Virus record (IMG/VR): IMGVR_UViG_3300001528_000407
Location: 1 to 64,000 of that record
From: a virus
Lineage: Duplodnaviria; Caudoviricetes
Reading direction: 5' to 3' (one strand)
Length of the DNA stretch: 64,000 nt
In this document: in pieces, positions 4,479 through 62,229 of the stretch
How the letters are laid out: every line of letters starts with the position of its first letter
Position numbering within the stretch: the stretch's first letter is position 1
The notes under the pieces: generated by a model
The model's database searches: none
What the model saw: the letters and a program-made list of their open reading frames with translations, nothing else
Told to the model about the DNA's origin: nothing
Position numbers and translations under genes: made by a program

Positions 4479-6548
4479 TTATATTTTTTTAGAGTCGTTG
4501 TCTGTCAGCAAGGTCTCTCCGTCTCTCATCTCGGCAGATACCTTGAAGGTTACGGTTCCCATCCTGTAGTCTGTGCCTCCGAGGTCTTCGTAGGTCAAGT
4601 CGATGGACGTTCCGGCGTTGGCGTGCGCCATTGCCCACTCATTATCCTTGGCGGCGTTGCCGGTGTCTCGCGTCCAGGTGATGTTGAACATTGAATTTGT
4701 CACATCCTGGTTGTAGAGCCATCCCTTCACATACAGGGTGGTGAACGGAACGAAGTTATTATCGCTGTCTCGTTTCATAATCTGGCTTGCCCTGAAGGTC
4801 CAGTAGTTGCTGGAGAGCATCTCCAGCTGGAAGAACGGATTGCCCTCCACGAAAGCCCATGCAGTGGATGAGTAGGTAGGTGGCTTGGTGGTCTTGTCTT
4901 CCAGGCACTGCCACTTGCAGCCGAGATAATAGACGGTGTCCACGGTGTTGTCGCCGTTGCGGTATGGGCTGTCGCCCTTTGCCACGCCCTCGCTCCAGGC
5001 ACCTCTGTCTCTTGTGGTGATGATGGGGTTGCCCTGGTAGTCTATCGTCTGGAAGGTCTGCGCCATCATCCACTTGGCGTAGAAGGCTCCGTCCCGCTTG
5101 TTGGCGGTAGGAAAATCCTTGAAGACAAACTGGAGGGCATCTGGCAACTTGCCCATGGCGAGCGAATAGTTAGATTTGTCGATGATAGGCTTCGTCACAT
5201 GATCGAGCCATACCAACAGGCCATCGCTCGACGAGATGTACCAGCAGCTCTGCCTGTCCTCGTCTACGGCGTTGCCCCATCTGATGAGTCTTGCGAGCTC
5301 GGTTGGTGGATAGTTCTTGCCCGACGGCACCTCGCTGTCAGGGTAGCATACCACATCGATGGTGTTGGCTACGGTGTTCACCGAAAGCACCCGGAACCAC
5401 ATGTCGTAGTATTCGCCACCGCTCGAAAGCGTGTTGATGGATGCCAGTACCACGTCGTTCTCCTTGAAAGCGGTAAAGTCGTTCTCCCACCGCTTCTGAA
5501 GCTTCAGCTTGTAGGTGGTGTTGCCGTCGTCGCTCGTGGATGCCATCTCCCTCACGGTCTCCACCAGTCCACTCTCGGTGAACACGAAGTTGCTCTCCAT
5601 CGCCGTTTGTCGGTTCGTGATGAGTTCCTTGGCTATGATGGAGCTGCGGGATGTAAGACTCTCCACCTCGGCATTGCCACGCTCATCGATGCGAGCACCG
5701 GAACCAAAAAGCATGCCTTGCACGAAATCACCAAAGGTGGCACCTTTTGTGAGGCTTGCAAGCTCTTTCGATGTTAACCCTTTTAGGAAGGTTATCAATC
5801 CTTGGGCTACATCATCCTTATCTTTTGCCAGGAAATGTTTTACGCCAAACTGACCTAGATATTGAGGCGTGACGATCTTATCAGTACTCGTCTCGATAGT
5901 ATTTTCTTCAGCAATACCATTTAATTCCTTGCCCCCAAGAATAAGCTTGGTGATATTTGCTACTTTTGCAGATAAAGTGTCAAAAGTAGCTTTCAAGATT
6001 GTCTTTAGAAAAGTAATAGAATCGCTAACCGAATTGTACTGCCACCAACTACCTTCTCCTCCGCTCGCCAATGCCTCGTCGGTGGCAAGGGAGCCACAAT
6101 CGAATTTCTGCTTCCAGTCTCGGCTACGATTTCCGCTTTCGTCGGCCTCCACCTCTCCGATGATACCTTGAAGAAAGATATAATAGAAATTCTCATCGCC
6201 TAGCTGCTTCGGGTTATCCTCGATAGTCTTACCATAGATGTCTATTCGCTGACTAGGAAAAGAGATGATGGCTACATCGTTATCCGATGTGCGCTTGCGA
6301 GGGATGGCAGCATAGACGTATTTGGCGTTGTTGTCCGGAAACTCGGAAGGGTAGGCGGCTAACGTCCAACGCTGGTAGTTGTGTCCGGCATCATAGCCCA
6401 AACCCTCTATGCCCTGCATATAACAGAGGATAGAGGCTCCGCTAATCGCACTCGCCTGAATGCGGTTAGGCTCACCGGTTGCGTTGAGCTGAATATAGAG
6501 CGCATTGCTCGCAATCCAATAGTTTGTTGTTTTAGCTTCTGTTGCCAT
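4479..6548 (-). CDS. Putative tail/baseplate protein
   Basis: 689 aa ORF directly downstream of an extended promoter; contains a RDRGAW...VYYLGCKWQCLED repeat-like module seen in tail proteins. Confidence 0.6.
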   Translation of the reverse strand: MATEAKTTNYWIASNALYIQLNATGEPNRIQASAISGASILCYMQGIEGLGYDAGHNYQRWTLAAYPSEFPDNNAKYVYAAIPRKRTSDNDVAIISFPSQRIDIYGKTIEDNPKQLGDENFYYIFLQGIIGEVEADESGNRSRDWKQKFDCGSLATDEALASGGEGSWWQYNSVSDSITFLKTILKATFDTLSAKVANITKLILGGKELNGIAEENTIETSTDKIVTPQYLGQFGVKHFLAKDKDDVAQGLITFLKGLTSKELASLTKGATFGDFVQGMLFGSGARIDERGNAEVESLTSRSSIIAKELITNRQTAMESNFVFTESGLVETVREMASTSDDGNTTYKLKLQKRWENDFTAFKENDVVLASINTLSSGGEYYDMWFRVLSVNTVANTIDVVCYPDSEVPSGKNYPPTELARLIRWGNAVDEDRQSCWYISSSDGLLVWLDHVTKPIIDKSNYSLAMGKLPDALQFVFKDFPTANKRDGAFYAKWMMAQTFQTIDYQGNPIITTRDRGAWSEGVAKGDSPYRNGDNTVDTVYYLGCKWQCLEDKTTKPPTYSSTAWAFVEGNPFFQLEMLSSNYWTFRASQIMKRDSDNNFVPFTTLYVKGWLYNQDVTNSMFNITWTRDTGNAAKDNEWAMAHANAGTSIDLTYEDLGGTDYRMGTVTFKVSAEMRDGETLLTDNDSKKI

Positions 6549-6593: not shown

Positions 6594-6632
6594 TGCAAAG
6601 TTAAGGAAAAAGATTTTTTCGGTTGGGACAAA
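6594..6632 (-). promoter_or_regulatory. Extended promoter TTTGTCCC-N21-TAACTTTGCA (copy 1)
   Basis: Reverse complement reads TTTGTCCC AACCGAAAAAATCTTTTTCCT TAACTTTGCA; contains the Bacteroidetes -7 box TAnnTTTG; about 45 bp upstream of the 6548 start. Confidence 0.75.
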
Positions 6633-6636
6633 CATA

Positions 6637-6678
6637 AAAACGCCCGAACGATTTTTCTCTTAATCGTTCGAACGTTTT
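6637..6678 (-). terminator. Stem-loop, probable terminator of the upstream tail operon
   Basis: AAAACG.CCGAACGATT / AATCGTTCGAACGTTTT inverted repeat followed by a T-run on the minus strand. Confidence 0.55.
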
Positions 6679-6771: not shown

Positions 6772-7827
6772 TCACAAGATAGGCGAACCATATATATCCA
6801 GCTTCGCACTAAACGATACAGAATACATATTAGTATTGGTTCTATCTCTCATCGTAATTTCTTCTTCTGCCGTGATAGTGCAAGGAATCCAGTTGTCTTT
6901 TACGTCGAGCCACACGTGCTCGCTCATCAAGAACTCATGCAGGTACCAGCGCAACCAATCCTCATCCAGAGGGTCGGTGATGAATTGCCATACCTCACGA
7001 TCATTCTTCTTGCTCACTGCCGAGCGAGAGAAACTATTAAAAGTTTCCAACTTAGTTACTGTATAGTTTTCGCTCTGGATGGAAAGTTTCTCGCTGTAGG
7101 CTCTCGGCACATTGATGCTCTCCAACACACCAAAGGAATTGATGAAACGGAAATTCATGCGGTCGGACGCTTGCGATTGTGGGATGGCATACAATGGCTG
7201 CCCACCGATGGTTTGCAAGCCTTCCTTGGCGATAGTCCCTATCTTTGATGTTGGCGCAACGAGACTGCTGCTTGCCGATAAGGTTTGAGGAGTAGCGTAA
7301 GCAGGGGTATAGGCATACGTATCGCCTATCACAACCACCTGTGGTGAGGATGTAGGCTTACGAGATAAGCTGGTTACGGATTTGGTTACGCCCGATGTCA
7401 TACGCTCTATATCCGAGAATGCACCTACGATACAGCGCAAGTTGGTAGCTCCACCTGTGCTTGCGTCCGGCTTCTGTGGGTAATATTGCTCGCCTACGTT
7501 GGTATGCACCTCGCCATTGCTATCCATGTACTCATCGTATGCCCTTATGAACCATTTCACCATCGGATAGGTTGCCGCATTCGATGTATATTCGTAATCC
7601 TCCAAAGGCACACGCAAAGCAGACGATACGTCCAACTCTACATTGTTGCCCTCCTTGGTGACAGGCACATTGAGCTGGATAGTCTCGTAATTGCCATTGC
7701 TCTCATACGACACCTCTACGATTACACGATGAAAGGATGGGTTATTGTATTGCTCTGGCTGTATAGTGAACGTGATAGGGTTGCCAGCCAAGATAGAACC
7801 CGACGTTAGATTGATTTTCTTTGCCAT
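6772..7827 (-). CDS. Putative minor tail protein
   Basis: 351 aa ORF; C-terminal RFINSFGVLES...WLHEFLMSEHVW resembles siphovirus distal-tail-type proteins; assignment relies on context. Confidence 0.5.
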   Translation of the reverse strand: MAKKINLTSGSILAGNPITFTIQPEQYNNPSFHRVIVEVSYESNGNYETIQLNVPVTKEGNNVELDVSSALRVPLEDYEYTSNAATYPMVKWFIRAYDEYMDSNGEVHTNVGEQYYPQKPDASTGGATNLRCIVGAFSDIERMTSGVTKSVTSLSRKPTSSPQVVVIGDTYAYTPAYATPQTLSASSSLVAPTSKIGTIAKEGLQTIGGQPLYAIPQSQASDRMNFRFINSFGVLESINVPRAYSEKLSIQSENYTVTKLETFNSFSRSAVSKKNDREVWQFITDPLDEDWLRWYLHEFLMSEHVWLDVKDNWIPCTITAEEEITMRDRTNTNMYSVSFSAKLDIYGSPIL

Positions 7828-7905
7828 AGCGATTTTATCAATGTTAAGTGTTAAATGTTAAGTGTTAAGTTTGGTGGTTCCGATAAAAACCTGATAGGGC
7901 GAGTA

Positions 7906-8160
7906 TCAGATTTTATCGGATAGTTTGCTTTCCACCAATTTCTCAAAATCCGATACCAAGACACAAGCCGAAGCCTCTTCGGGCTTAATCTTAATATTAA
8001 ACATCGTTTCCGTCTGAAGTATCATATCCAGGTAGTCGATAGACTCCAGCCCGATGTCCTCTCGTAGGTTAGAGCTATCTTCTATCTCTGTATCGTTGGT
8101 AGGCGATTTCAAACCCTCGATAATAGTATGTAGCCTTGCCTTGATTTCTTCCTTTTCCAT
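7906..8160 (-). CDS. acpP: Acyl carrier protein
   Basis: 84-88 aa acidic helical protein with LREDIGLESIDYLDM...ETMFNIKI, the phosphopantetheine-Ser motif (canonical DLGxDSLD); alternative start at 8172. Confidence 0.85.
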   Translation of the reverse strand: MEKEEIKARLHTIIEGLKSPTNDTEIEDSSNLREDIGLESIDYLDMILQTETMFNIKIKPEEASACVLVSDFEKLVESKLSDKI

Positions 8161-8238
8161 AACTTGTTTCATTGCTTGTTTTGTAACTTATTTCACAACT
8201 CGTTTCATAACTTGATAAGTTCTTGCCTTGATAAGAAT

Positions 8239-9480
8239 TTATTCCGATTCATTATTCTCTACTCTCGAAACGACAAACGATGCGTTCGTACCTCCAAAGC
8301 CAAATGAATTGCAAAGAATATTGTGGGCTGCATATTCTTTGGTTTTCATCACGAGGTTCAGCTTAGGAAAAGCACTCTCTTGTGTACCGACGCAACCAGG
8401 CAAGAATTCATTTCTAAGCATGATAGTAGCTTGCACAGCTTGCGATACGCCTGCCATCCAACACTCGTGTCCGGTCATTCCCTTGGTAGCTACGATATGA
8501 GGGCAAAGAGTGAAAGTATCGCCGATAGCCCTTGCTTCTGCTTCATCGCCAAGGATGGTACCTGTGGCATGGGCAAGCACAACATCTATAAAACCTTCAT
8601 CCAACTCTGCATTGTCGATAGCCTTAATCATAGAGGCGGATTCTTGATAGGCGAAGGGAGTGCTGATACCTTTCGTTCCATTGGAAGAGAAGCCGTAGCC
8701 CGATAATTCTGCCAAAGGCGCATAGTCTTTTTGTTCTTCGGATATTCGCTCACGATAATTAGCTTCTGGCTCCAGGAGGATGCAAGCCGCACCTCCCGAA
8801 GGCGCAAGCCCGCTACGATGCTTGCCAAAAGGCTGCACCTTGTCTTCAGTAAATACACCGAGCGCATCGAAAGACTGCATGGATGCCACACCGCTTTCTT
8901 GTGCGCCCACTACGATAACCATTTCTGTTTGTTGGGTATCGAGAAGCATCTTCGCCAAACCGATGGCATGACCGCCTCCTGCGCAAGCTGCACTCACGGT
9001 AAGCGACAAACCGTGTATGCCAAGAATAGAAGCGAGATTCATACTTACTGTAGAATTGAGTGAACGGAAGACGGCTCCTGCCCCCAAATAACGAGTATCG
9101 TTCTTCTGTTGCATCTTTATGCCCGTTTGCATCACAGCTCCAGCAGTGGAGTCATTGCTAACGATGAGCGATACATGATGATCGTGCAAAAAATCATCTG
9201 TTACTTTCGCTTCGGCGATGGCTTGCTTCACTGTGCTGAGTGCATATTGCCCAGGCTGGGAAATACACTGGCGTTGTGCCCTTGTCAGCTCTTGGATTAC
9301 AGCCATAGATACCATAGGCACATCGCCACATAGGTCAGACTGATAGCCATGCGCCTTTCGTTGGCTATCGTGATGTAAGCCGCACTTGCCATCATGTAAG
9401 GCTTCTGCGAAATCGGGTACGTTGGTGGCAAGGCATGAATGTATGCCCAAGCCAGTAATCAATATTCTATCTTTTTTCAT
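8239..9480 (-). CDS. Beta-ketoacyl-ACP synthase (FabB/FabF-like, KAS I/II family)
   Basis: Start re-assigned to ATG 9480 (MKKDRILITGLG). Catalytic triad intact: SAACAGG (Cys), HATGT (His), KGMTGH (His); C-terminal NSFGFGGTNAS. Confidence 0.92.
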   Translation of the reverse strand: MKKDRILITGLGIHSCLATNVPDFAEALHDGKCGLHHDSQRKAHGYQSDLCGDVPMVSMAVIQELTRAQRQCISQPGQYALSTVKQAIAEAKVTDDFLHDHHVSLIVSNDSTAGAVMQTGIKMQQKNDTRYLGAGAVFRSLNSTVSMNLASILGIHGLSLTVSAACAGGGHAIGLAKMLLDTQQTEMVIVVGAQESGVASMQSFDALGVFTEDKVQPFGKHRSGLAPSGGAACILLEPEANYRERISEEQKDYAPLAELSGYGFSSNGTKGISTPFAYQESASMIKAIDNAELDEGFIDVVLAHATGTILGDEAEARAIGDTFTLCPHIVATKGMTGHECWMAGVSQAVQATIMLRNEFLPGCVGTQESAFPKLNLVMKTKEYAAHNILCNSFGFGGTNASFVVSRVENNESE

Positions 9481-9497: not shown

Positions 9498-12284
9498 CTA
9501 TAATGCGTAAACAGTAAGTTCCACCTCGCCCAAACCAGTCTCTGCACTGATGGTGGTATTCACCTTGTCGATAATGCACTTGATACCTCCGATATTCCAC
9601 CACTCCTTCCAATGGTTAGGAATATCGGCAACCTGCGCTACGGTAGTGGAGCAGCGTATCTTGTATTTCTTTCGATTGAGAAGGAAATAAGCGTATGGCA
9701 AGATGAACGTATCGAATAAGCCACGAGACTTAATCTTGGTAACGACATTTCCCTTATCGTCCACCTCGTCTGGGTCGCAAAGAACCACGTCCTTATATTT
9801 CGGGTCTTTCAGCCAGGATGGTTCCTTGTAGGCTCGTATCTTCAATGAGAATCTTTCGCCATTGCCAAGACCCTCCTGTACACCGTTGTAATCGAAGAGA
9901 TTACCCATCATATCGAGAGAGTCACAGGCAAGGGCGTATTTACCAACAGCCGTGCGCCACTTAGATGTACCAAAACCATCATAGTTGTAGTCGTAACTTT
10001 GTACGGTTGCATCACTACCACCTCCACGCATCATAGCAAGCGCAAAGCCCCAACGAGAATCATCTTGCAAAGGAGAATTACCATCGTCGGTGCCGGATGG
10101 GTCGTAGCTCTCTACTAGTTTTAGAGATTGCTGCATATAGAAATCGCAGAATGCAGTAGAAATCGTTTGATTGATGATTTGCTCGACAAACTCATGCTCC
10201 ATGTCCTCATCTACGTAAGCGCAAAGAATAGGTTGTCCATTCTCGATGGTGACACCATACTTCTTACCCGACGTAGTATCTACTGCCTCATGCGAGCCAT
10301 AGGCAGACTCTATCTCCTTGAAATAATTTACATCATTGAAAGGGACAGGAGTGAAGTCTATACTTATGTCCTGGATAAAGTCTTCATTCTCCTCGCTACA
10401 ATCTCCATATTCCACACCCTTATATTGGCCTACCTCGAAAAGAACAGGTTTTAAGTCGGATGTAGTAGTAGCATCGCCGTTTACCTTGACGCGATAAGCA
10501 TTACCAGTCTTTCGGTCGATATAGCAATGTTTGTCTCCACTACTCAAATTGTGGAAGAAATCAATATAGTCCATGTTATAGACCGTAGAATTATCTCCAC
10601 TATCAGGTTCAGGATAGTCAATATAGTTGTAATCGGTCTCATAATTCATGTTCTTATTCTTGCGACTATCCTTCACGTTTTGCTTCTGGTCCTTAGAGTC
10701 GCTTTCCTCGGAATACCTCATACGAACACCAGTGATCTTTTCGGTCATAGGCACGATAGAATGAATGTTCGCATGAAACGCCCTCGCCTCTTGACCGCTT
10801 TTGCGCAAAACATCACGAACGAGGTAGGCGGTTACTTTCTTCTGCTCGTAGTCGTAAGAAAACTTGATACCAAAAGCACTCTCAAGCGAACTAATCACAG
10901 TACTAACCGTTTCATCTGGAAAGTTGTCACTATTGGCAACCATGTAAAGCACGTTTGCCTGAACAGAAAACTTCTCGATTTGTGCCTCAATGGAAATACC
11001 TGTAACCTTTCCTCCCTCTTCGGTTGTCTCACCCACCTGCACATGCTCCGATGTACCATCTGGTTTCTTTAGGGTCAGTTCCTGGGTATCTTTGTCCTCT
11101 GCTTTTACGATGTTAATCTGACCTCCACAACCACGAGAACTAAGCCAGCCATTAATTTGTGCCTGATTACTGAAATACCCAGTTTTAATTTCTCCAACTT
11201 TCTTTTTTTTGGCGATAACCTCTTCATCAGTCTCTGTATAGTAAGTCCCATGATGAGGATGCTGCATTGTGTCGTAAGCACACACCGTTGTGAAGAAACA
11301 AAGATGTTTAAAATCTTCTATTTCAAGTAAAGCTGATTTATCAAATGACACACCTAAATAATCAAAAAGACAATCAAGAAAATAGAGAACGTAGAAACAG
11401 ATTCCAGACTGCGGCCGATTAGCGTCCAAAACCCAATACGGATAAAGGTCTTCGTTGGTCCAAGTGCAATCTTTTGTCGATATAACATCGCTGGCAGTTT
11501 GCCCATCCTCATCAAGCCCATGATGTTTATAACAAACACGAGCATTACAATAGGCTGCTGCACGTCCTGCCAAATCCGTCTCACCGTAAGATGCAGAAAC
11601 ATTAATATAGTTGCCATTGATAGCTGCTTCTGGAACTGATATTTCGTGATTATTAGGGTATGTTCTTGTCGTTTTGAGCTTTGCAACACCATAAAAGCCA
11701 GGAATCTCCACACAAGTAGCAGGATAGGAAAAACCAAGAGCTTGTGGCTCTAATACCTTGCTTACGCTTACATGTGCCGCTTGTATTTTTCTCGTCTCAT
11801 TCTTATCATGTTTATGTTTACCTCCCTCGATAAAAACATTCACCTTAACAACAGGGTCACTCTCAATATCCACTCTCACGTTTCCTATCTTCTCGCCGAT
11901 GATGATAGTATCTTTCACAGGAATATCACGACAATTCAGCGAACCGATAAGGTCACTGAAACTCTGTGTGCTGGCATCAATATTCATCGAGAGCGAGTTG
12001 GTAATCTCCTCATCATCCTGCATCACCAAGGTGCCGCTACGGAAAGGCAAGCCATCGGCATAAATCTTAGTTGGCTTGTGCTCCAGGTTGACAGCACGGA
12101 TAGACGCACGAGGGTCTTCGATGTTCTTCAGTAGCCATCGGTTGCCATCAAGAGGCAAGGTGAATGGATAGGAAAACATCTCGGTATCATTGAACACAGG
12201 GTTGGAGTCCTCTATGTCGATAGAGAAATCAGAACTCTGTGCAGCAGGCTTATCGTCGATTAATATAGTAAGATGCGATTTCAT
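9498..12284 (-). CDS. Large putative tail protein
   Basis: 928 aa ORF; N-terminal FSIDIEDSNPVFND..FSYPFTLP resembles phage tail hub/baseplate proteins of Bacteroidetes phages. Confidence 0.6.
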   Translation of the reverse strand: MKSHLTILIDDKPAAQSSDFSIDIEDSNPVFNDTEMFSYPFTLPLDGNRWLLKNIEDPRASIRAVNLEHKPTKIYADGLPFRSGTLVMQDDEEITNSLSMNIDASTQSFSDLIGSLNCRDIPVKDTIIIGEKIGNVRVDIESDPVVKVNVFIEGGKHKHDKNETRKIQAAHVSVSKVLEPQALGFSYPATCVEIPGFYGVAKLKTTRTYPNNHEISVPEAAINGNYINVSASYGETDLAGRAAAYCNARVCYKHHGLDEDGQTASDVISTKDCTWTNEDLYPYWVLDANRPQSGICFYVLYFLDCLFDYLGVSFDKSALLEIEDFKHLCFFTTVCAYDTMQHPHHGTYYTETDEEVIAKKKKVGEIKTGYFSNQAQINGWLSSRGCGGQINIVKAEDKDTQELTLKKPDGTSEHVQVGETTEEGGKVTGISIEAQIEKFSVQANVLYMVANSDNFPDETVSTVISSLESAFGIKFSYDYEQKKVTAYLVRDVLRKSGQEARAFHANIHSIVPMTEKITGVRMRYSEESDSKDQKQNVKDSRKNKNMNYETDYNYIDYPEPDSGDNSTVYNMDYIDFFHNLSSGDKHCYIDRKTGNAYRVKVNGDATTTSDLKPVLFEVGQYKGVEYGDCSEENEDFIQDISIDFTPVPFNDVNYFKEIESAYGSHEAVDTTSGKKYGVTIENGQPILCAYVDEDMEHEFVEQIINQTISTAFCDFYMQQSLKLVESYDPSGTDDGNSPLQDDSRWGFALAMMRGGGSDATVQSYDYNYDGFGTSKWRTAVGKYALACDSLDMMGNLFDYNGVQEGLGNGERFSLKIRAYKEPSWLKDPKYKDVVLCDPDEVDDKGNVVTKIKSRGLFDTFILPYAYFLLNRKKYKIRCSTTVAQVADIPNHWKEWWNIGGIKCIIDKVNTTISAETGLGEVELTVYAL

Positions 12285-15895: not shown

Positions 15896-17710
15896 TTACT
15901 CCTGCCCTTGTTTTGCAACACCTGTTTTTGAGTTATCAAGAGTAGTCAACACCTCCCTGTCTATCTGCCAAACCAGATGCTCATCCCAGTCATTAAATCG
16001 GGAAATAACCTCCAAAGGTCTTAACATCGCCTGCTGCAATGGAGCAAACTGGATTTGCTTCACCAGGAATCGCTCTCTAAGGTCGGTACCACCCGATGAT
16101 GCAGTATCGCCAGGCGTGTTTCCGATGAGCTTGGCATCGAGACCCATGGCAAAGAAAATGATGCTTGAAATCTCTTGCAACTCGGACTTGTCGGCTTTCG
16201 CCTGGTCGTTGGCCTTGCTTTCGATTTCCACGATTTCCCAAGCCTTGTGCTCCTTGCCATCGCTGCCCGTGAATGCGGAAGAGACGAGAGCCTGACCCGC
16301 ATTGTCGGGGTTGGCGAGCCACGTATTAATCGACGTAAAGATTTCGTTCTGAATCTCGCCGATGGTTTTCTTCTTTTCCTGTCCCTGCTGTTGGTAGAGC
16401 TTGTTGATGTAGTCTTGATGGATGTAAATCACTCGCCCGATGATGTTGCTATTGCGCTTTCGGGTAAGGCGATCATCTACGATAGTAAAGGCATACTCAA
16501 AGATGCTGCCCGCAAAGATGGAGTGCCAACTTGCCTCGGCATAGTATGGACCACCGTAATCTCTTGGCGACATGATGAATCGGGTAGGGCGTTTCTTTAC
16601 TGCCACCCGCTTCTGTCTCGCCTCACGTATGTGTCGCTGCAAATCTTTCACTGCCGATGTGTTCTGCAAGAAAGGAATGGCAGATACCTTGCGGTCTTCC
16701 TCTTTCAGCGTGTTGGCAGATTGGGTAGAATCGAGCCACTGGTTAGAGACATACGCATAGTTGATGCGATAATTAGGGTCTTGTCGCTCCAATCGGGTGG
16801 TAAAGATACTGCGGTGCTTCAAGCCAATCACGCTTGGCTTCCAGTTGGCTGTATCTACCGGCTTGCCGTCCTCGCTCATCTGACGTTGGTTCAACTGCAA
16901 TTCGGCAAAGCACTGACTCATCAGAGCCATATCACCAGCCATATTGAGGTAAGTCTGCATCAAGTCGTTTTCTTCGATGAATTGGCGCACCTTCGCATTC
17001 GTGTCCTCCCATTCCGTCAAGGCATCTTTGAGAGATTTCATCTCCTCACTGTCCTCATCTTGTGCAGGATAAGAAAGATTGAGAGAGATAGGCTTTTCTT
17101 CTGAAGTATCATTCTCGGCGGATGCGTTCTGCTGCTGTTGTTGCTCGGCTTGCTGACGCTCTAGGCGAGCTTTCTCTTCCTGGGCTTTCAACTCGGCGAT
17201 TTGACCTCGAAGCAAGACACCTGCCGTCTCGTAAGGGATGTACTTCTCTGTGATGTTGCCACCTACATACTGGGTGTAGTGATACTTAGGCACCGGACCA
17301 CGACCTACCAAGATTTTCTTGATGAAGTCGAATCCAGCCGCTGTGAATGGCGACATTCGAGTAAGCATCCATACGATGTTAGGCTTGCGGTTGCCCAATC
17401 CCCATTCCATGTAACCGAGGTTAGGGGAACCTGCGCCCTTTGGCTTGTTAAAGCTCTCGCCGCCGCTCGAAGCAAAGATGCTCGATACCTGTTGGCGAGC
17501 CGCACTACCTTCACTCGAACCGCTTGCGCTCATACCTGCCTCGCTAAGGAGCATGGAGCGCACATAGTCGTTCCAAGAGAACACCTTATGTCCTCCGTTC
17601 TTGGGCGACACATAGGCATCAGGGCGCACTGCTACATAGCCTGCTTGCTTGAGTTCCTCACTACGCTGTTGGAACTGCTGCAAGTTTGTGACTCTGTTTT
17701 TCTGTCTCAT
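15896..17710 (-). CDS. Portal protein
   Basis: 604 aa; YMEWGLGNRKP near the N-terminus and IIFFAMGLDAKLIGNTPG...SGGTDLRERF near the C-terminus fit Bacteroidetes phage portals; assignment uses motif memory and context. Confidence 0.7.
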   Translation of the reverse strand: MRQKNRVTNLQQFQQRSEELKQAGYVAVRPDAYVSPKNGGHKVFSWNDYVRSMLLSEAGMSASGSSEGSAARQQVSSIFASSGGESFNKPKGAGSPNLGYMEWGLGNRKPNIVWMLTRMSPFTAAGFDFIKKILVGRGPVPKYHYTQYVGGNITEKYIPYETAGVLLRGQIAELKAQEEKARLERQQAEQQQQQNASAENDTSEEKPISLNLSYPAQDEDSEEMKSLKDALTEWEDTNAKVRQFIEENDLMQTYLNMAGDMALMSQCFAELQLNQRQMSEDGKPVDTANWKPSVIGLKHRSIFTTRLERQDPNYRINYAYVSNQWLDSTQSANTLKEEDRKVSAIPFLQNTSAVKDLQRHIREARQKRVAVKKRPTRFIMSPRDYGGPYYAEASWHSIFAGSIFEYAFTIVDDRLTRKRNSNIIGRVIYIHQDYINKLYQQQGQEKKKTIGEIQNEIFTSINTWLANPDNAGQALVSSAFTGSDGKEHKAWEIVEIESKANDQAKADKSELQEISSIIFFAMGLDAKLIGNTPGDTASSGGTDLRERFLVKQIQFAPLQQAMLRPLEVISRFNDWDEHLVWQIDREVLTTLDNSKTGVAKQGQE

Positions 17711-17787: not shown

Positions 17788-18873
17788 TTACTTTCGTCTC
17801 ATCTTTTCCATCTCCTCATTTTCCTTGGAGAGACGTTCCAGGTGTTCGAGAACCAAGGAGTAGCTTTGGTTGTTCACCTGGTCTTCGGTCAGCCCTGCAT
17901 ACTTCTGCATCGTGGCAGTGGTGGCCGTGTAAATCTCCAAAGGAGTAGATGGCTTCTGCTTCTTTATCGGCTGCACTTTGAATACATGAGGGAATCGCTT
18001 GCTAAGAACGTGCATCGTACCCGTCCACCAAAACAGGATAACCTGCCATTGCGTATCGGGGAAGTCTTGGAAGTAGCAAGCGTTCTTGGTGCATTGGTCC
18101 AACTCGTAGTGATAATCGTACTTCACCATGCCGGTGTTGCTATCCACGAACTGTGTTACGCCGTTAAAGATGATGGCGAGAAACATCGCCTTCGCCTTAT
18201 TCACATTCTGCACCTGCTGCATCATCTGCTCCTCAGAGAAAGTACCTCGCTCCTTCATCTTGATAAGGGAGTTGGAAAGTTGGGTATAAGTACCCATCAT
18301 ATCCGATGCAAAACGATATTGCGCCCAAGAGAAACCATCCAGGTCTTGATGTGGTCCTTGAAAGGTTTTCACCCTACGGTACCATTTGCGCTTTCGCTCG
18401 ATAAAGTCGTAGGGTAGGGTAGTAAGATACATACCGTTCTTATTGTCGAGCCAATCGAGAATACCTGCACCTTGGGCGATATATTCAGCCGAGTTCTTGT
18501 TGTCGGTCTTCGCCTTAGAATCAAGCCAATACTTAATCTGCCAAACATAGAGAGGGAAGAGTCTTTCATCATCCTCCACCTTGACTTTCTTCTTAGGCTT
18601 GTATGGCTTGCCGTCCTTGCTCTGATAACAGAGATAGTATTGTTCGCCGATAGGCATTCGCTTGTCGGGGTAGGCGACGATTTGCAGGTCGGCAAGGGCA
18701 AAGAACATAGCTATCTTGACCGTTTCCATCGAGAAGGGATGGTAACGGTCTTGTCGCTCTATCTGCTCCCTCATCACATCAGCGATAAGTTCCAGTTGCT
18801 TTCGAGAGCAAAGGTTCCAATGCTTCGGGAGAGATAGATTGATGCGCCGCGGTTGGTTATTCGATATGTTCAT
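17788..18873 (-). CDS. Hypothetical virion-associated protein
   Basis: 361 aa ORF between endolysin and portal. Confidence 0.6.
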   Translation of the reverse strand: MNISNNQPRRINLSLPKHWNLCSRKQLELIADVMREQIERQDRYHPFSMETVKIAMFFALADLQIVAYPDKRMPIGEQYYLCYQSKDGKPYKPKKKVKVEDDERLFPLYVWQIKYWLDSKAKTDNKNSAEYIAQGAGILDWLDNKNGMYLTTLPYDFIERKRKWYRRVKTFQGPHQDLDGFSWAQYRFASDMMGTYTQLSNSLIKMKERGTFSEEQMMQQVQNVNKAKAMFLAIIFNGVTQFVDSNTGMVKYDYHYELDQCTKNACYFQDFPDTQWQVILFWWTGTMHVLSKRFPHVFKVQPIKKQKPSTPLEIYTATTATMQKYAGLTEDQVNNQSYSLVLEHLERLSKENEEMEKMRRK

Positions 18874-18924: not shown

Positions 18925-19479
18925 TTAAAACTCAATGATAATGCCCTTGTTGGTAGTAAGAGAGCCATACTTGATAGCTTCAAGTCGGCGCAACCAACCA
19001 TTGATATATTTCTTCTGTGAAGGATTATTCCTCACGATACCCTCATAGAATTGCTTGCGGCGAGCCTTTAGGCGATTGAAGAAAGTCTTCGGGTTCTGAC
19101 GGTTGATAGCTGCAATCGTCTGCTTGCCTGGGATGCCATCGGCTTTCAAGCCAAGCATACTTTGAGTGATGGTGATGGAAGGTGTACCGCTGCACCATAT
19201 CCAATCCACAAGAAGGTTAGCAATGCTCTGATCTTTGATTTCATCTGCACGCCATCGTTTCCAATAGCATCGGCGCATAACTTCGGTGGCATCGGCATCC
19301 GTGATGAGTTTGAGATCATCCACGTCGATGTCGCCGTCTCCGTCCTTGTCGTAGCCTTGCATGCGCCAGGTAGCGATGGTTACACCTTTGTTAGTTGCAC
19401 CACCACGGTCTTTGGGGTCATTTACAAAACCTCCCTCAAAGGAGAGAATGAATTTTGCTATAGGGTCTATCTTTGCCAT
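18925..19479 (-). CDS. Endolysin, glycoside hydrolase family 108 with peptidoglycan-binding domain
   Basis: EGGFVNDPKDRGGATNKGVT catalytic motif; C-terminal DGIPGKQT...KYINGWLRR. Confidence 0.9.
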   Translation of the reverse strand: MAKIDPIAKFILSFEGGFVNDPKDRGGATNKGVTIATWRMQGYDKDGDGDIDVDDLKLITDADATEVMRRCYWKRWRADEIKDQSIANLLVDWIWCSGTPSITITQSMLGLKADGIPGKQTIAAINRQNPKTFFNRLKARRKQFYEGIVRNNPSQKKYINGWLRRLEAIKYGSLTTNKGIIIEF

Positions 19480-19503: not shown

Positions 19504-19542
19504 TGCAAAGATATAAAAAGAGATTTTTATGGTAGGGACAAA
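19504..19542 (-). promoter_or_regulatory. Extended promoter TTTGTCCC-N21-TATCTTTGCA (copy 2)
   Basis: Reverse complement TTTGTCCC TACCATAAAAATCTCTTTTTA TATCTTTGCA, 25 bp upstream of the endolysin start. Confidence 0.75.
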
Positions 19543-35532: not shown

Positions 35533-35571
35533 TGCAAAGGTAGAAAAAGAGGGTAGACGAGAGGGGACAAA
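35533..35571 (-). promoter_or_regulatory. Extended promoter TTTGTCCC-N21-TACCTTTGCA (copy 3)
   Basis: Reverse complement TTTGTCCC CTCTCGTCTACCCTCTTTTTC TACCTTTGCA, upstream of protease/capsid/tube. Confidence 0.75.
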
Positions 35572-38815: not shown

Positions 38816-39730
38816 TTACTCCAATGTTTCCTTCTGAAACTTGAAGTCTGGAATAAGCTGCTGCATTCTATTCAAGATGGTGTTGTGGATCAAGCAACCT
38901 ATCATCTTGGCGTTCGGGTGAGCCTTGCCGGTACTCTCCAGGAAACGAAGGTTGATGATGTGTTGCCACTCCTTGATGTTGTAGGTATATGCCACCACGG
39001 TATAGGTATCAAGCGGAAGAATGCCTCTTGCATCCTGAGCCTTCAATCCGCTCTTCAGCAATCGTAGGTATATCCAACTACTCACCTTGCAGCCAATAGT
39101 AAAGAGGAATCTTTGCCACCAGGTACCATCGTGCAACCAATGGGGTTTGGCTATCTGCACACCACCTTTCTTCTCCATATTCACGTAGCGAGTACTCTGC
39201 TCGCTGATACAGTTGGGCGATGTGCGGTTCAACTCTCGTGAAGTTGAAATCTGGGTAGTTACCACCATCGTCATGCGAAGGAGATAATAAGCCTCCTGAC
39301 AGTCGTACTTTTGAGCCATCGTAATAAAGTCCTCTTCCTCCACCTCATATCGCTCTACCAGCTTGTAGAGGCTGCCATGCTCGCACATAAACTGGAGGTT
39401 GGTACTGATCCATACCTTTCTATCCTTCACTGCATAGTCGATGTATGGCGATGCACAGAGGAATGCCCAAAGGTCACGAGGCACCTGCCCGCTATTCTTG
39501 ATGAAGAAGTAGAGCGTGCCATGACGATACATCGAGCGATGCCCACTATCCCAAAAGCGGTTGCAAAGTTTGACGGCTTGCTCCTCTCTGAACTTCTCTT
39601 TCTGCTCCTCGGACAAATCCTCGTCAGACTTCTTCGCCTTGCTCTTGTAACAGATTCTGCCCACCTTGGCTATCTGCTGGACGGCGGTCTTCTGCGGCCA
39701 CCACTCCACACCAGGAATTATCATTTTCAT
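38816..39730 (-). CDS. thyX: Flavin-dependent thymidylate synthase
   Basis: GHRSMYRH, SRELNR...SEQSTRY and AQDARGILP...WQHIINLR...AHP motifs. Confidence 0.9.
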   Translation of the reverse strand: MKMIIPGVEWWPQKTAVQQIAKVGRICYKSKAKKSDEDLSEEQKEKFREEQAVKLCNRFWDSGHRSMYRHGTLYFFIKNSGQVPRDLWAFLCASPYIDYAVKDRKVWISTNLQFMCEHGSLYKLVERYEVEEEDFITMAQKYDCQEAYYLLRMTMVVTTQISTSRELNRTSPNCISEQSTRYVNMEKKGGVQIAKPHWLHDGTWWQRFLFTIGCKVSSWIYLRLLKSGLKAQDARGILPLDTYTVVAYTYNIKEWQHIINLRFLESTGKAHPNAKMIGCLIHNTILNRMQQLIPDFKFQKETLE

Positions 39731-40508: not shown

Positions 40509-41606
40509 TTAATGCAGCTCCCTCCAAACTTGTTGCTTGATGGAATGATACTCTCCCTCACCGCAATTCTGCTTGAAAGCATGAATGAGGTAGGCATAGG
40601 TTACGGTATTGCTACTACCCAGCTGCCTCCACTTCTGTGAAGTCTGAGCCGAATTATACTTTCGGCTGCAAGCGGAAAGGTCATGGAAGAGACGCTCACC
40701 GTATGGGTGAGCCTTCAATGCCCAACCCGCCTTGGTCCACTCATCATAACTTTCTGCGATATTAATGCCTCTGCCCGCAAGCGTCTTCACTATCAGTTCT
40801 ATCAATCTATCTTGTGTGCGAGGGTCGTTCCAGAAAGATCTGTATGCCTCTTCCGAGTTATAACTGGAGTTGTTACTCATCGCTTGCTGATAACGCTGTC
40901 TCGCTTGTCGCTCGTAGTTGATTCGCGCTTGCGGTACCACCTGCGGCTCATCCATCAACAAGCCCCGATAAGGCTGCACATGATTATTAATGTAGATATG
41001 ATCCTCGTCATCCCAGGATGCAAAGCGCACTCGCCCGATGTTGCCACACTGTTTGTCGAGCACGATGCCAAGAGCCGCATAGTCTCGAAGCAAGGCTTTG
41101 AATTGCGCCTTATGCTTATCGGGATAAGCCAACTTTACCAAGCCGAAATATCCGGTACCCGAGCAACTTCTCATCAACAAACCTATCTCTGGACGAAAAC
41201 GAGCCACCATTTTGATATTCTCGAAGTTGGTAAGCTGCAAATTATCTTGCAGGTCGATGTCGATGGCGAGCCAGCCGGTATGCTGTTTCAGATGGGTCTC
41301 TCTTCGGGAAACCATCACTCGCTGCCCTGGGTGGGTAAGGCTCTCGTCCTCGTAGAGAGAGAAGAGACCGCTCAACGTAGCTCCAGGTAACATCTTCTTG
41401 GTGTCGATGTATTCGGGCATCTTCTTTGCCTTGCTGCCATATTCCTGGCGCATCGCCCTCAACTTCTCAACATACGGCTTCCATCTATCCGTAAGACAGA
41501 ACTCACGGATAGACATCTGCTGAATGCACTCACCCGTCTCTCTATCGACGAACCTTCCGTAGGCATCGGTGGCAGACTCGTATATGGAACAAATTTCTTC
41601 AAACAT
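40509..41606 (-). CDS. BT4734-like (VirE N-terminal) primase-polymerase with PriCT-2 domain
   Basis: KKMLPGATLSG, WLAIDID, RSCSGTGYF and CGNIGRVRFASWD motifs; C-terminal YDEW.KAGWAL...FHDLS..SRKYN. Confidence 0.8.
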   Translation of the reverse strand: MFEEICSIYESATDAYGRFVDRETGECIQQMSIREFCLTDRWKPYVEKLRAMRQEYGSKAKKMPEYIDTKKMLPGATLSGLFSLYEDESLTHPGQRVMVSRRETHLKQHTGWLAIDIDLQDNLQLTNFENIKMVARFRPEIGLLMRSCSGTGYFGLVKLAYPDKHKAQFKALLRDYAALGIVLDKQCGNIGRVRFASWDDEDHIYINNHVQPYRGLLMDEPQVVPQARINYERQARQRYQQAMSNNSSYNSEEAYRSFWNDPRTQDRLIELIVKTLAGRGINIAESYDEWTKAGWALKAHPYGERLFHDLSACSRKYNSAQTSQKWRQLGSSNTVTYAYLIHAFKQNCGEGEYHSIKQQVWRELH

Positions 41607-50108: not shown

Positions 50109-50147
50109 TGCAAAGATAGTGATTCTGTTATGAATGGTGGGGACAAA
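50109..50147 (-). promoter_or_regulatory. Extended promoter TTTGTCCC-N21-TATCTTTGCA (copy 4)
   Basis: Reverse complement TTTGTCCC CACCATTCATAACAGAATCAC TATCTTTGCA, upstream of holin/tape measure. Confidence 0.75.
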
Positions 50148-50190: not shown

Positions 50191-50229
50191 TTTGTCCCAA
50201 CCGTTTATGGGGAATTTTATAATTTTGCA
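50191..50229 (+). promoter_or_regulatory. Extended promoter TTTGTCCC-N21-TAATTTTGCA (copy 5)
   Basis: TTTGTCCC AACCGTTTATGGGGAATTTTA TAATTTTGCA, upstream of the terminase operon. Confidence 0.75.
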
Positions 50230-58617: not shown

Positions 58618-59574
58618 TTAATCTAACGGTTCGCTACATTTCAACTCGTTCACCAACTCCATGTAGTCATCATACAGTTGTGGTGGTATCTGTTTATACA
58701 GTCGCTCATCGAAGAAACTCTTCTTTAGTATTACCTGGGTTTCCGGTGTCGCTCTCGATGCTGCCACTAAGTACTGAAGAAACTCTATCAGCTCATCGGG
58801 CTCATATCTATCCTTCTTGAAAGGCGACCGCAAGCCGAGGCGTATCTCGTCTGCCACACCCATGATGTCCATCAATACATCCTTGGCACGATAGAACTTA
58901 ACGACAGGCTCCATCGAGACAAAAGTTTTATAGCCCAAAGCCTTTACTCGCTCCAGGGCATTGATGCGGTCGTTGGTGGATGGAGCGTTAGGCTCCAGCT
59001 CGTCCATGCCCGTGATGGTGAAGCCGAAGGTGATAAGGTTGCAGCGAAGTCGGAAGCACTGGCTGTAGATTTCACTCTTCTCGTCATCGAGCCAAGCGGT
59101 GTCCTTGGTGAGGACGGTTACGGGGACGTGGTAGTTGGTGACGAGATTCTCGATGCAGTTGATGGTGTAGAATACGGTGTCCTCTGCCATCGGATCACTC
59201 TTGAAGGAGAGGAATATGCCACCGTCCTGGATGATTCGCTCGCTGCCTATCTTTCGCACGTCCTTTTCGATGATTTCGCTCATCGCTAGGAGTGTGGATG
59301 CTGTCTTGATGCTGATGGGGATAAATTGGTACATCGGTATGCCCTCACGCTTCATGTAGGCATTGAGCAACTTGTCTCGCAAGTTGGCGATAGGTGCCGC
59401 CAACTTTGGCTCATCGCCAAAGGCGTGGCTCAACACACCTCGGCGATTATAGCAATAGGTGCATCCGTTGCTGCAACCATTGTATAGATTTATCGCCCAC
59501 TTAGCGTATTCGCCCGCTGGTCCTTGGGGCTGATAGATGAGCTTGCCCTTGATAGGCTTCTTGGTTTCTTCCAT
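58618..59574 (-). CDS. Radical SAM protein (SPL/Rv2578c-like)
   Basis: INLYNGCSNGCTYCY CxxxCxxC motif; FLSFKSDP, VLTK, GFTIT, EPNAPS..RINAL and SMEPV. Confidence 0.85.
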   Translation of the reverse strand: MEETKKPIKGKLIYQPQGPAGEYAKWAINLYNGCSNGCTYCYNRRGVLSHAFGDEPKLAAPIANLRDKLLNAYMKREGIPMYQFIPISIKTASTLLAMSEIIEKDVRKIGSERIIQDGGIFLSFKSDPMAEDTVFYTINCIENLVTNYHVPVTVLTKDTAWLDDEKSEIYSQCFRLRCNLITFGFTITGMDELEPNAPSTNDRINALERVKALGYKTFVSMEPVVKFYRAKDVLMDIMGVADEIRLGLRSPFKKDRYEPDELIEFLQYLVAASRATPETQVILKKSFFDERLYKQIPPQLYDDYMELVNELKCSEPLD

Positions 59575-62190: not shown

Positions 62191-62229
62191 TGCAAAGGTA
62201 CAAAAAGTATTTTTATCGGTGGTGACAAA
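62191..62229 (-). promoter_or_regulatory. Extended promoter TTTGTCAC-N21-TACCTTTGCA (copy 6)
   Basis: Reverse complement TTTGTCAC CACCGATAAAAATACTTTTTG TACCTTTGCA, upstream of the HU-like gene. Confidence 0.7.

Follow-up and report, generated by a model that had tools for sequence, protein, structure and literature searches.

The first 64 kb of the 87,338-bp IMG/VR phage record IMGVR_UViG_3300001528_000407 (completeness estimate, 88%), hereafter the window, carry a two-gene cassette that encodes a ketoacyl-acyl carrier protein synthase (KAS) and an acyl carrier protein (ACP) amid virion-type genes. We propose, at a probability of roughly 0.5, that this auxiliary cassette would edit the lipids or the envelope of the host late in infection via a private ACP pool. 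The two genes are as follows.

8239-9480, minus strand: KAS, ketoacyl-ACP synthase, 413 amino acids (aa), ATG at 9480; FabB-like, outside every named family
7906-8172, minus strand: ACP, acyl carrier protein, 88 aa, acidic (isoelectric point 4.5); Ser44 in the motif LESID

An earlier note, made from the letters of this DNA, had described a co-oriented pair flanked by genes of 928 and 351 aa, the gaps being 17-78 nt, and the coordinates bear this out: g928 (928 aa), KAS, ACP, and g351 (351 aa) all lie on the minus strand, separated by 17, 66, and 78 nt, respectively. A TTG frame of KAS that reaches 9612 overlaps the end of g928, and the longer start is not needed; the ACP relatives begin at the equivalent of Met5 in the window. 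The record also encodes a tape measure protein, terminase, endolysin, holin, and protease, so that phage genes flank the cassette on both sides and the cassette resides in a bona fide phage genome.

KAS shows both Pfam matches of a decarboxylating condensing enzyme of the thiolase fold (PF00109, 82.6 bits; PF02801, 66.4 bits; cut-off 20.8), and condensing activity on acyl and malonyl thioesters is predicted. Alignment to E. coli FabB pairs Cys166, His304, Lys333, His338, and Phe395 with Cys163, His298, Lys328, His333, and Phe392 of FabB, Phe395 lying in the GFGG gate, and with Ser44 of ACP in LESID the intact Cys-His-His triad and ACP serine motif that had been read from the sequence alone are both in place. 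Among 67 phage KAS, the His, Lys/His, and GFGG motifs are invariant; the Cys motif is retained by at least 90% of the sequences, some of which are truncated at contig ends. The gating Asp of loop 2 (FabF D265) is missing, with Asn in its place in the window and in clade A of the phage KAS and other residues in clade B. This Asp stabilizes the open gate, and in E. coli FabF the D265N variant spares the reaction with short-chain probes and impairs that with longer-chain probes (PMC7138838), which makes the Asn of the phage enzyme a weak hint of altered substrate handling. Both genes are kept by purifying selection, with pairwise ratios of nonsynonymous to synonymous substitution (dN/dS) in the close clade of 0.12 for KAS and 0.18 for ACP, next to 0.06-0.12 for neighboring structural genes.

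With 22.5 bits against a cut-off of 20.8, the ACP matches Pfam PF00550, and it also matches PHROG 5934 ('acyl carrier protein'); its attachment Ser, located where helix II begins, is invariant in 60 phage homologues. It is not equivalent to housekeeping AcpP, as the best NCBIfam ACP model reaches 35.8 bits against a cut-off of 66. Its 4'-phosphopantetheinylation is putative, and we assume that host AcpS would carry it out.

All NCBIfam models of KAS score far below their cut-offs, the best being FabB NF005935 (189 against 630 bits). On the FabF model TIGR03150 the phage KAS reaches 165.4 bits (cut-off 493.75), whereas the true FabF proteins of Prevotella and Bacteroides score 607 and 613 bits. 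We therefore rejected assignment to FabB (KAS I), which fell below the NF005935 cut-off with E. coli FabB in a different tree group, and likewise to FabF (KAS II), where the TIGR03150 cut-off was missed and host FabF forms an outgroup at a branch support of 100. Among solved structures, Vibrio FabB 4XOX (158 bits) and E. coli FabB (137 bits) rank above FabF (about 93), and no PDB entry named as the ketosynthase (KS) of an aryl-polyene (ape) cluster ranks above FabB. FabB (KAS I; PDB 4XOX, 1DD8) shares with the phage KAS its length, the Cys-His-His residues, the Lys, the GFGG gate, and NSFGFGGTN. The two are nevertheless only about 26-30% identical, the phage enzyme has GHECWM after the second His where FabB has GHSLGA and Asn for the loop-2 Asp, and, unlike FabB, it comes without a FabA partner. 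FabB is part of the proteobacterial FabA/FabB route, which is not known from Bacteroidota.

In an exhaustive profile-free search, all relatives of about 45% identity or more were of phage type, and below these came stand-alone KAS proteins at 35-40% and then ordinary FabF/FabB-like proteins at about 30%. The nearest cellular KAS (the P0272 clade) are 37-38% identical and chromosomal in Bacteroidales, in at least 562 species genomes that include Prevotella, Bacteroides, and Parabacteroides; the P0272 KAS had no relative in IMG/VR. The maximum-likelihood tree unites phage clades A and B (SH-aLRT support 96) on a long stem (0.99) and nests them with the chromosomal Bacteroidales KAS in a larger group (support 99); Prevotella/Bacteroides FabF and E. 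coli FabB are placed elsewhere. Two motifs, AHATxT at the first His and GHE[CM]WM following the second, are common to phage and chromosomal KAS; by these motifs and the tree, the phage KAS belongs to the GHE[CM]WM accessory-KAS branch of Bacteroidales. The chromosomal KAS has further points in common with that of the window, namely the loop-2 Asn and an ACP gene after KAS. One example of the chromosomal cluster is given here.

L125:8847-16998 (Prevotella sp. tc2-28; also L114): Bacteroidales chromosomal cluster around a KAS with GHE[CM]WM

The cellular cluster consists of GNAT-like, KAS, ACP, FabZ-like dehydratase, MMPL transporter, flavin adenine dinucleotide (FAD) oxidoreductase, FabG, and LolA-like genes; the neighbors of the KAS-ACP pair there (GNAT-like, FabZ-like, MMPL, FAD oxidoreductase, FabG, and LolA-like) are all absent from the phage. 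Phylogeny against host FabF had been put forward as a check, and it places the phage KAS in one clade well apart, with no recent capture of fabF/acpP. Such a capture was rejected on the 38% identity to the nearest cellular KAS, the monophyly of the phage clade, and purifying selection. The likely source of the phage KAS, and possibly its partner pathway, is the Bacteroidales lipid cluster that occurs in at least 562 species.

Two reported systems offer a comparison. Aryl-polyene clusters (E. coli ape) combine a fatty-acid synthase-like KS, ACP, dehydratase, and reductase with an RND transporter and a LolA-like carrier, machinery that places a special lipid in the outer membrane (PMC8253772). 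Likened by gene content, the Bacteroidales cluster around the chromosomal relative of the phage KAS shares this general make-up, but, unlike aryl-polyene clusters, neither L125 nor the phage showed a chain-length factor, acyl-ACP synthetase, thioesterase, or second KS. Predicted roseobacter prophages are reported to carry acpP, fabF, and fabG as auxiliary genes, in the host-like order fabG-acpP-fabF (PMC8224337), and this was the nearest report in a literature search that found no description of a KAS-ACP cassette. In contrast to the roseobacter case, the window cassette lacks fabG and combines a divergent, phage-specific KAS lineage with an ACP of its own, and it is inserted, present or absent, in late virion-gene units of phages of about 100 kb.

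A search with KAS retrieved 55 IMG/VR contigs of 50-110 kb at 59-75% identity, and the order g604-g385-g389-g214-g928-KAS-ACP-g351-g689 is kept in 55/55 loci. Of 67 loci found with g928, all 61 close ones have KAS downstream, and six more distant relatives (g928 identity 38-49%) lack the cassette at this site. The synteny check called for in the earlier note hence divides: the cassette is universal and at the same site in 61/61 close loci, and absent from six distant relatives in which a homologous g928 is present. In five of these six, g351 follows g928 within about 10-16 nt, and in the sixth (L214) a primase-like gene follows g928 after a gap of about 1.2 kb. Of the cassette-free records, five were searched whole and gave no PF00109 match; these include an 83,657-bp genome that is complete and has terminal repeats. 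In a sister clade (B; KAS 40-45% identical) an overlapping ACP and KAS, in that order, mostly lie directly behind the tape measure gene, with g351 about 47 kb from KAS, and in some members the pair adjoins other genes, including replication genes. On an unrelated 160-kb phage contig, KAS and then ACP overlap (L070:9989-11355) between dNMP kinase and exonuclease genes and terminase, and this KAS belongs to a separate subclade. The KAS lineage as a whole comprises at least 120 protein clusters at 90% identity, on contigs of up to about 139 kb.

Absence in distant relatives and changing position indicate a self-contained two-gene cassette that was gained, moved, or lost in this group. KAS-ACP is an optional accessory cassette with no neighbor constant across clades, and, lying within a phage genome and being present in some relatives and absent from others, it is an auxiliary metabolic gene cassette. 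Nucleotide searches of GenBank phages gave no match to it, and tblastn returned one 40%-identical fragment from human feces and host-like contaminants only.

Genes that accompany the cassette were sought in a co-occurrence search, which returned a radical-SAM-like gene, holin, and small open reading frames (ORFs), from a single contrast genome and so with no statistical power. The radical-SAM-like ORF (58618-59574, minus strand; PF04055 at 23 bits, below cut-off) occurs in complete KAS-bearing genomes of both clades and is absent from the complete KAS-free genome; it also occurs in one KAS-free fragment, and a link to the cassette is therefore unproven. In the sister clade, about 1-1.2 kb after the KAS stop is without a long ORF (L063:11245-12450, L061:11236-12297) and precedes a gene for a 128-130-aa membrane protein and a primase-like gene; Rfam searches of two clade B loci gave no family.

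Transcription of the cassette can be followed from the signals of its unit.

19506-19542, minus strand: late-type promoter heading the KAS/ACP unit, TTTGTCCCnACC, then 25 nt after TTTG to TAnCTTTG
18925-19479, minus strand: endolysin, first gene of the unit (Pfam GH108, 85.1 bits, and PG_binding_3, 50.7 bits)
7879-7920, minus strand: stable hairpin over the ACP stop codon (-18.2 kcal/mol, z -5.5)
6645-6670, no strand assigned: palindromic, terminator-like hairpin after g351
6596-6632, minus strand: late-type promoter heading the g689 unit, the next copy of the TTTGTCCCnACC-type motif

The unit reads endolysin, g361, g604, g385 (DUF6712), g389, g214, g928, KAS, ACP, g351, hairpin. The extended promoter consists of TTTGTCCCnACC and 25 nt from TTTG to TAnCTTTGCA, and six copies align in the window (6596-6632, 19506-19542, 35533-35571, 50109-50147, and 62191-62229 on the minus strand; 50191-50229 on the plus strand). 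A motif scan placed copies at 19532-19542 and 6622-6632, each with a -7 box. The extended promoter precedes structural, lysis, and packaging units, and the six copies probably constitute the late regulon of the phage. Between 14879 and 6636 the minus strand has no Bacteroidetes-type -7 box (TAnnTTTG), and the motif scan found none upstream of KAS, ACP, or g351; the only other such boxes between the promoters at 19506-19542 and 6596-6632 are at 18549 and 14886, both within coding sequence. The 78-nt spacer between ACP and g351 (7828-7905, minus strand) contains three to four copies of ACTTAACA. This spacer is 1-2 nt long in 27 of 54 relatives; the remainder have unrelated palindromic inserts there, 61-116 nt in length and in some cases with short tandem words, which identifies the hairpin at the ACP stop as a variable insert and not a conserved terminator. 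The inserts, in the window and in loci L002-L056, resemble small mobile hairpin elements. A moron with its own promoter and terminator was rejected on the missing TAnnTTTG box, the gaps of 1-2 nt in many relatives, and the nonconserved hairpin, in agreement with the initial description of a pair without either signal. These features support a model in which KAS and ACP would be cotranscribed with late structural and lysis genes.

The phage brings little else of a lipid pathway. Across the whole 87,338-bp record we found no match to a phosphopantetheinyl transferase (PPTase; PF01648), malonyl transferase (PF00698), reductase (PF00106), or dehydratase (PF07977), which extends to the full record the previous statement that no reductase, dehydratase, acyltransferase, or PPTase lies in the window. 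Five relatives that are 98-100% complete likewise had no PPTase, and when the proteins of the L125 chromosomal cluster were compared with the phage by tblastn, KAS was the only match. Without a PPTase or reductive enzymes in the phage, ACP activation and all reductive steps would have to be supplied by the host. We envisage that insertion between two tail-tip-type genes would give the cassette bulk late expression from the promoter at about 19540. Host AcpS would activate the phage ACP and host FabD would load it with malonate, the phage KAS would use this private pool of ACP to condense acyl with malonyl units, and host reductive enzymes, from either core type II fatty-acid synthesis or an accessory lipid cluster, would complete the chain. 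The product could then feed or alter a host envelope lipid during virion assembly and release.

The genes around the cassette bear on how its setting is to be read.

15896-17710, minus strand: g604, probable portal, from position only
9498-12284, minus strand: g928, next gene upstream of the cassette; on weak fold matches, a probable tail-tip or baseplate-hub-like protein
6772-7827, minus strand: g351, beta-sandwich virion-type protein with an FN3-like N-terminus, last gene of the unit
4479-6548, minus strand: g689, fiber or receptor-binding-like protein with a hypervariable C-terminus (PHROGs 26822 and 17422, no functional name)

The AlphaFold2 (AF2) model of g928 is of low confidence (predicted local distance difference test [pLDDT] 58), and its VIA-align matches are weak (Z of 6.8 or less). 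Among the 50 best rows, about half come from phage tail tips or baseplate hubs and from related parts of contractile injection systems; these weak rows include the cyanophage A-1(L) baseplate, the T5 tip and Dit, and the lambda and T1 tips, as well as Mu gp44, 80alpha, diffocin, AFP, and VgrG. Foldseek against the PDB gave no g928 match at an E value of 0.001 or better, the ESM Atlas only unnamed viral clusters, and identity across the 67 loci ranges from 38 to 93%. The AF2 model of g351 (pLDDT 76.9) has an FN3-like N-terminal sandwich (Z about 8), for which Foldseek against the PDB found only generic Ig/FN3 sandwiches (TM score about 0.2). The g351 family is common in Bacteroidota siphophages, its many look-alikes being uncharacterized proteins of Caudovirales that include Flavobacterium, Nonlabens, and Polaribacter phages. 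Neither g928 nor g351 matched Pfam or PHROG, g604 had no family or PDB sequence match, and profile searches of all three against PDB sequences returned nothing significant; in relatives, g604 comes after a large terminase homologue and one small gene. The tail-type character first given to both flanking genes is tentative, with weak tail-tip and hub matches for g928 and a generic FN3-like sandwich for g351. Describing the unit as a tail operon is plausible and moderately supported, and the unit also holds the endolysin and the probable portal. Homologues of g689 span 657-2804 aa with a conserved N-terminus, and the protein resembles a determinant of host range whose C-terminal modules are swapped. 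Elsewhere in the window, a primase-like gene (BT4734-like_N and PriCT_2; 40509-41606, minus strand) and thyX (38816-39730, minus strand) lie downstream of the tape measure gene, beyond some 0.9 kb with only small ORFs, and virion and replication modules are accordingly interleaved in this phage.

The tail setting had led the earlier note to virion lipidation, in which acyl chains on the phage ACP would be transferred to a tail-tip or baseplate protein. The cassette does lie between genes for a hub-like and a tail-tip protein in this phage and directly behind the tape measure in sister phages, late cotranscription would fit such a role, and many relatives have ACP and g351 translationally coupled. 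Cys-His-His KAS are enzymes that form C-C bonds, and none is known to acylate proteins; nor was an acyltransferase recognized in the phage. Homologous g928, g351, and g689 occur in cassette-free relatives, which makes the tail module independent of the cassette, whereas in sister phages the cassette is located elsewhere, as far as the 47 kb between g351 and KAS in clade B, and no neighbor is conserved across clades. The tail module of cassette-free relatives and the changing position together argue against a fixed virion substrate, and the step from tail context to virion lipidation is not supported; we consider that explanation improbable. We take the tail-gene neighborhood to indicate the timing of expression, not the substrate. 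Changing position and absence in relatives favor a cassette that would plug into host lipid metabolism while borrowing a late promoter, and editing of host lipids or envelope would, on these comparisons, be the more likely reading of the two. Several observations weigh on the other side. In most phages examined, the cassette is in or at the end of virion-gene units, and a virion-linked role is possible. The phage and chromosomal clades form a polytomy in the tree, with the sister relation not resolved, and the phage ACP has no detectable specific similarity to the ACP of the chromosomal cluster, which leaves joint capture of the pair unproven. Gene order also differs, KAS-ACP in one clade and ACP-KAS in the other, and the sole indication of a host is that close homologues bear the public names of Prevotella and Segatella metagenome-assembled genomes (MAGs).

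Condensation is a controlling step of fatty-acid elongation, and the cassette could be a plain booster of bulk synthesis that sustains membrane lipids as host expression declines. The acpP/fabF/fabG auxiliary genes of roseobacter prophages (PMC8224337) and the existence of PHROG 5934 as a phage ACP family speak for such a role. We nevertheless find it unlikely: the KAS is far from host FabF, in an accessory branch tied to specialized lipid clusters, the divergent private ACP suggests a separate acyl pool, and the change from Asp to Asn in loop 2 corresponds to the D265N substitution that impairs the reaction of FabF with longer-chain probes (PMC7138838). Interference with the host appears still more doubtful. 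Abundant phage ACP and KAS would here soak up host AcpS, FabD, or malonyl groups, for instance via decarboxylation of malonyl-ACP, and would in this way shut down or divert host lipid synthesis or make a small beta-keto or polyketide-like molecule. Cys-His-His KAS do have a malonyl decarboxylase side activity, the cassette has two components only with no reductive enzymes in the phage, and predicted expression from a strong late promoter would suit a sink. The conserved Cys (at least 90% of rows) and the GFGG gate, however, exceed the needs of a decoy or a pure decarboxylase, and no tailoring or release enzyme was found in the phage. A recent host passenger (fabF/acpP), or a binning or assembly artifact without phage function, would agree with the Prevotella and Segatella MAG names of close homologues, yet more than 60 IMG/VR phage contigs, 50-110 kb in length, have the pair at the same site, and the 38% identity to the nearest cellular KAS, monophyly, and purifying selection make this origin extremely improbable.

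Phage-borne fatty-acid genes have so far been listed in surveys and never explained. In the present case an abundant lineage of gut phages keeps a phage-specific condensing enzyme and its own carrier under purifying selection, and the cassette-free relatives provide a natural control. A further, speculative outcome, to which we give little credence, is that the acyl group ends on the virion, on a tail-tip protein or a tail-carried lipid, or masks a receptor on the outer membrane of the dying cell; if true, a virion-borne or receptor-masking acyl group would represent a lipid-based step in adsorption or release without described precedent in tailed phages of Bacteroidales. The analysis also points beyond the phages to a large, uncharacterized lipid cluster of the Bacteroidales themselves, present in at least 562 species.

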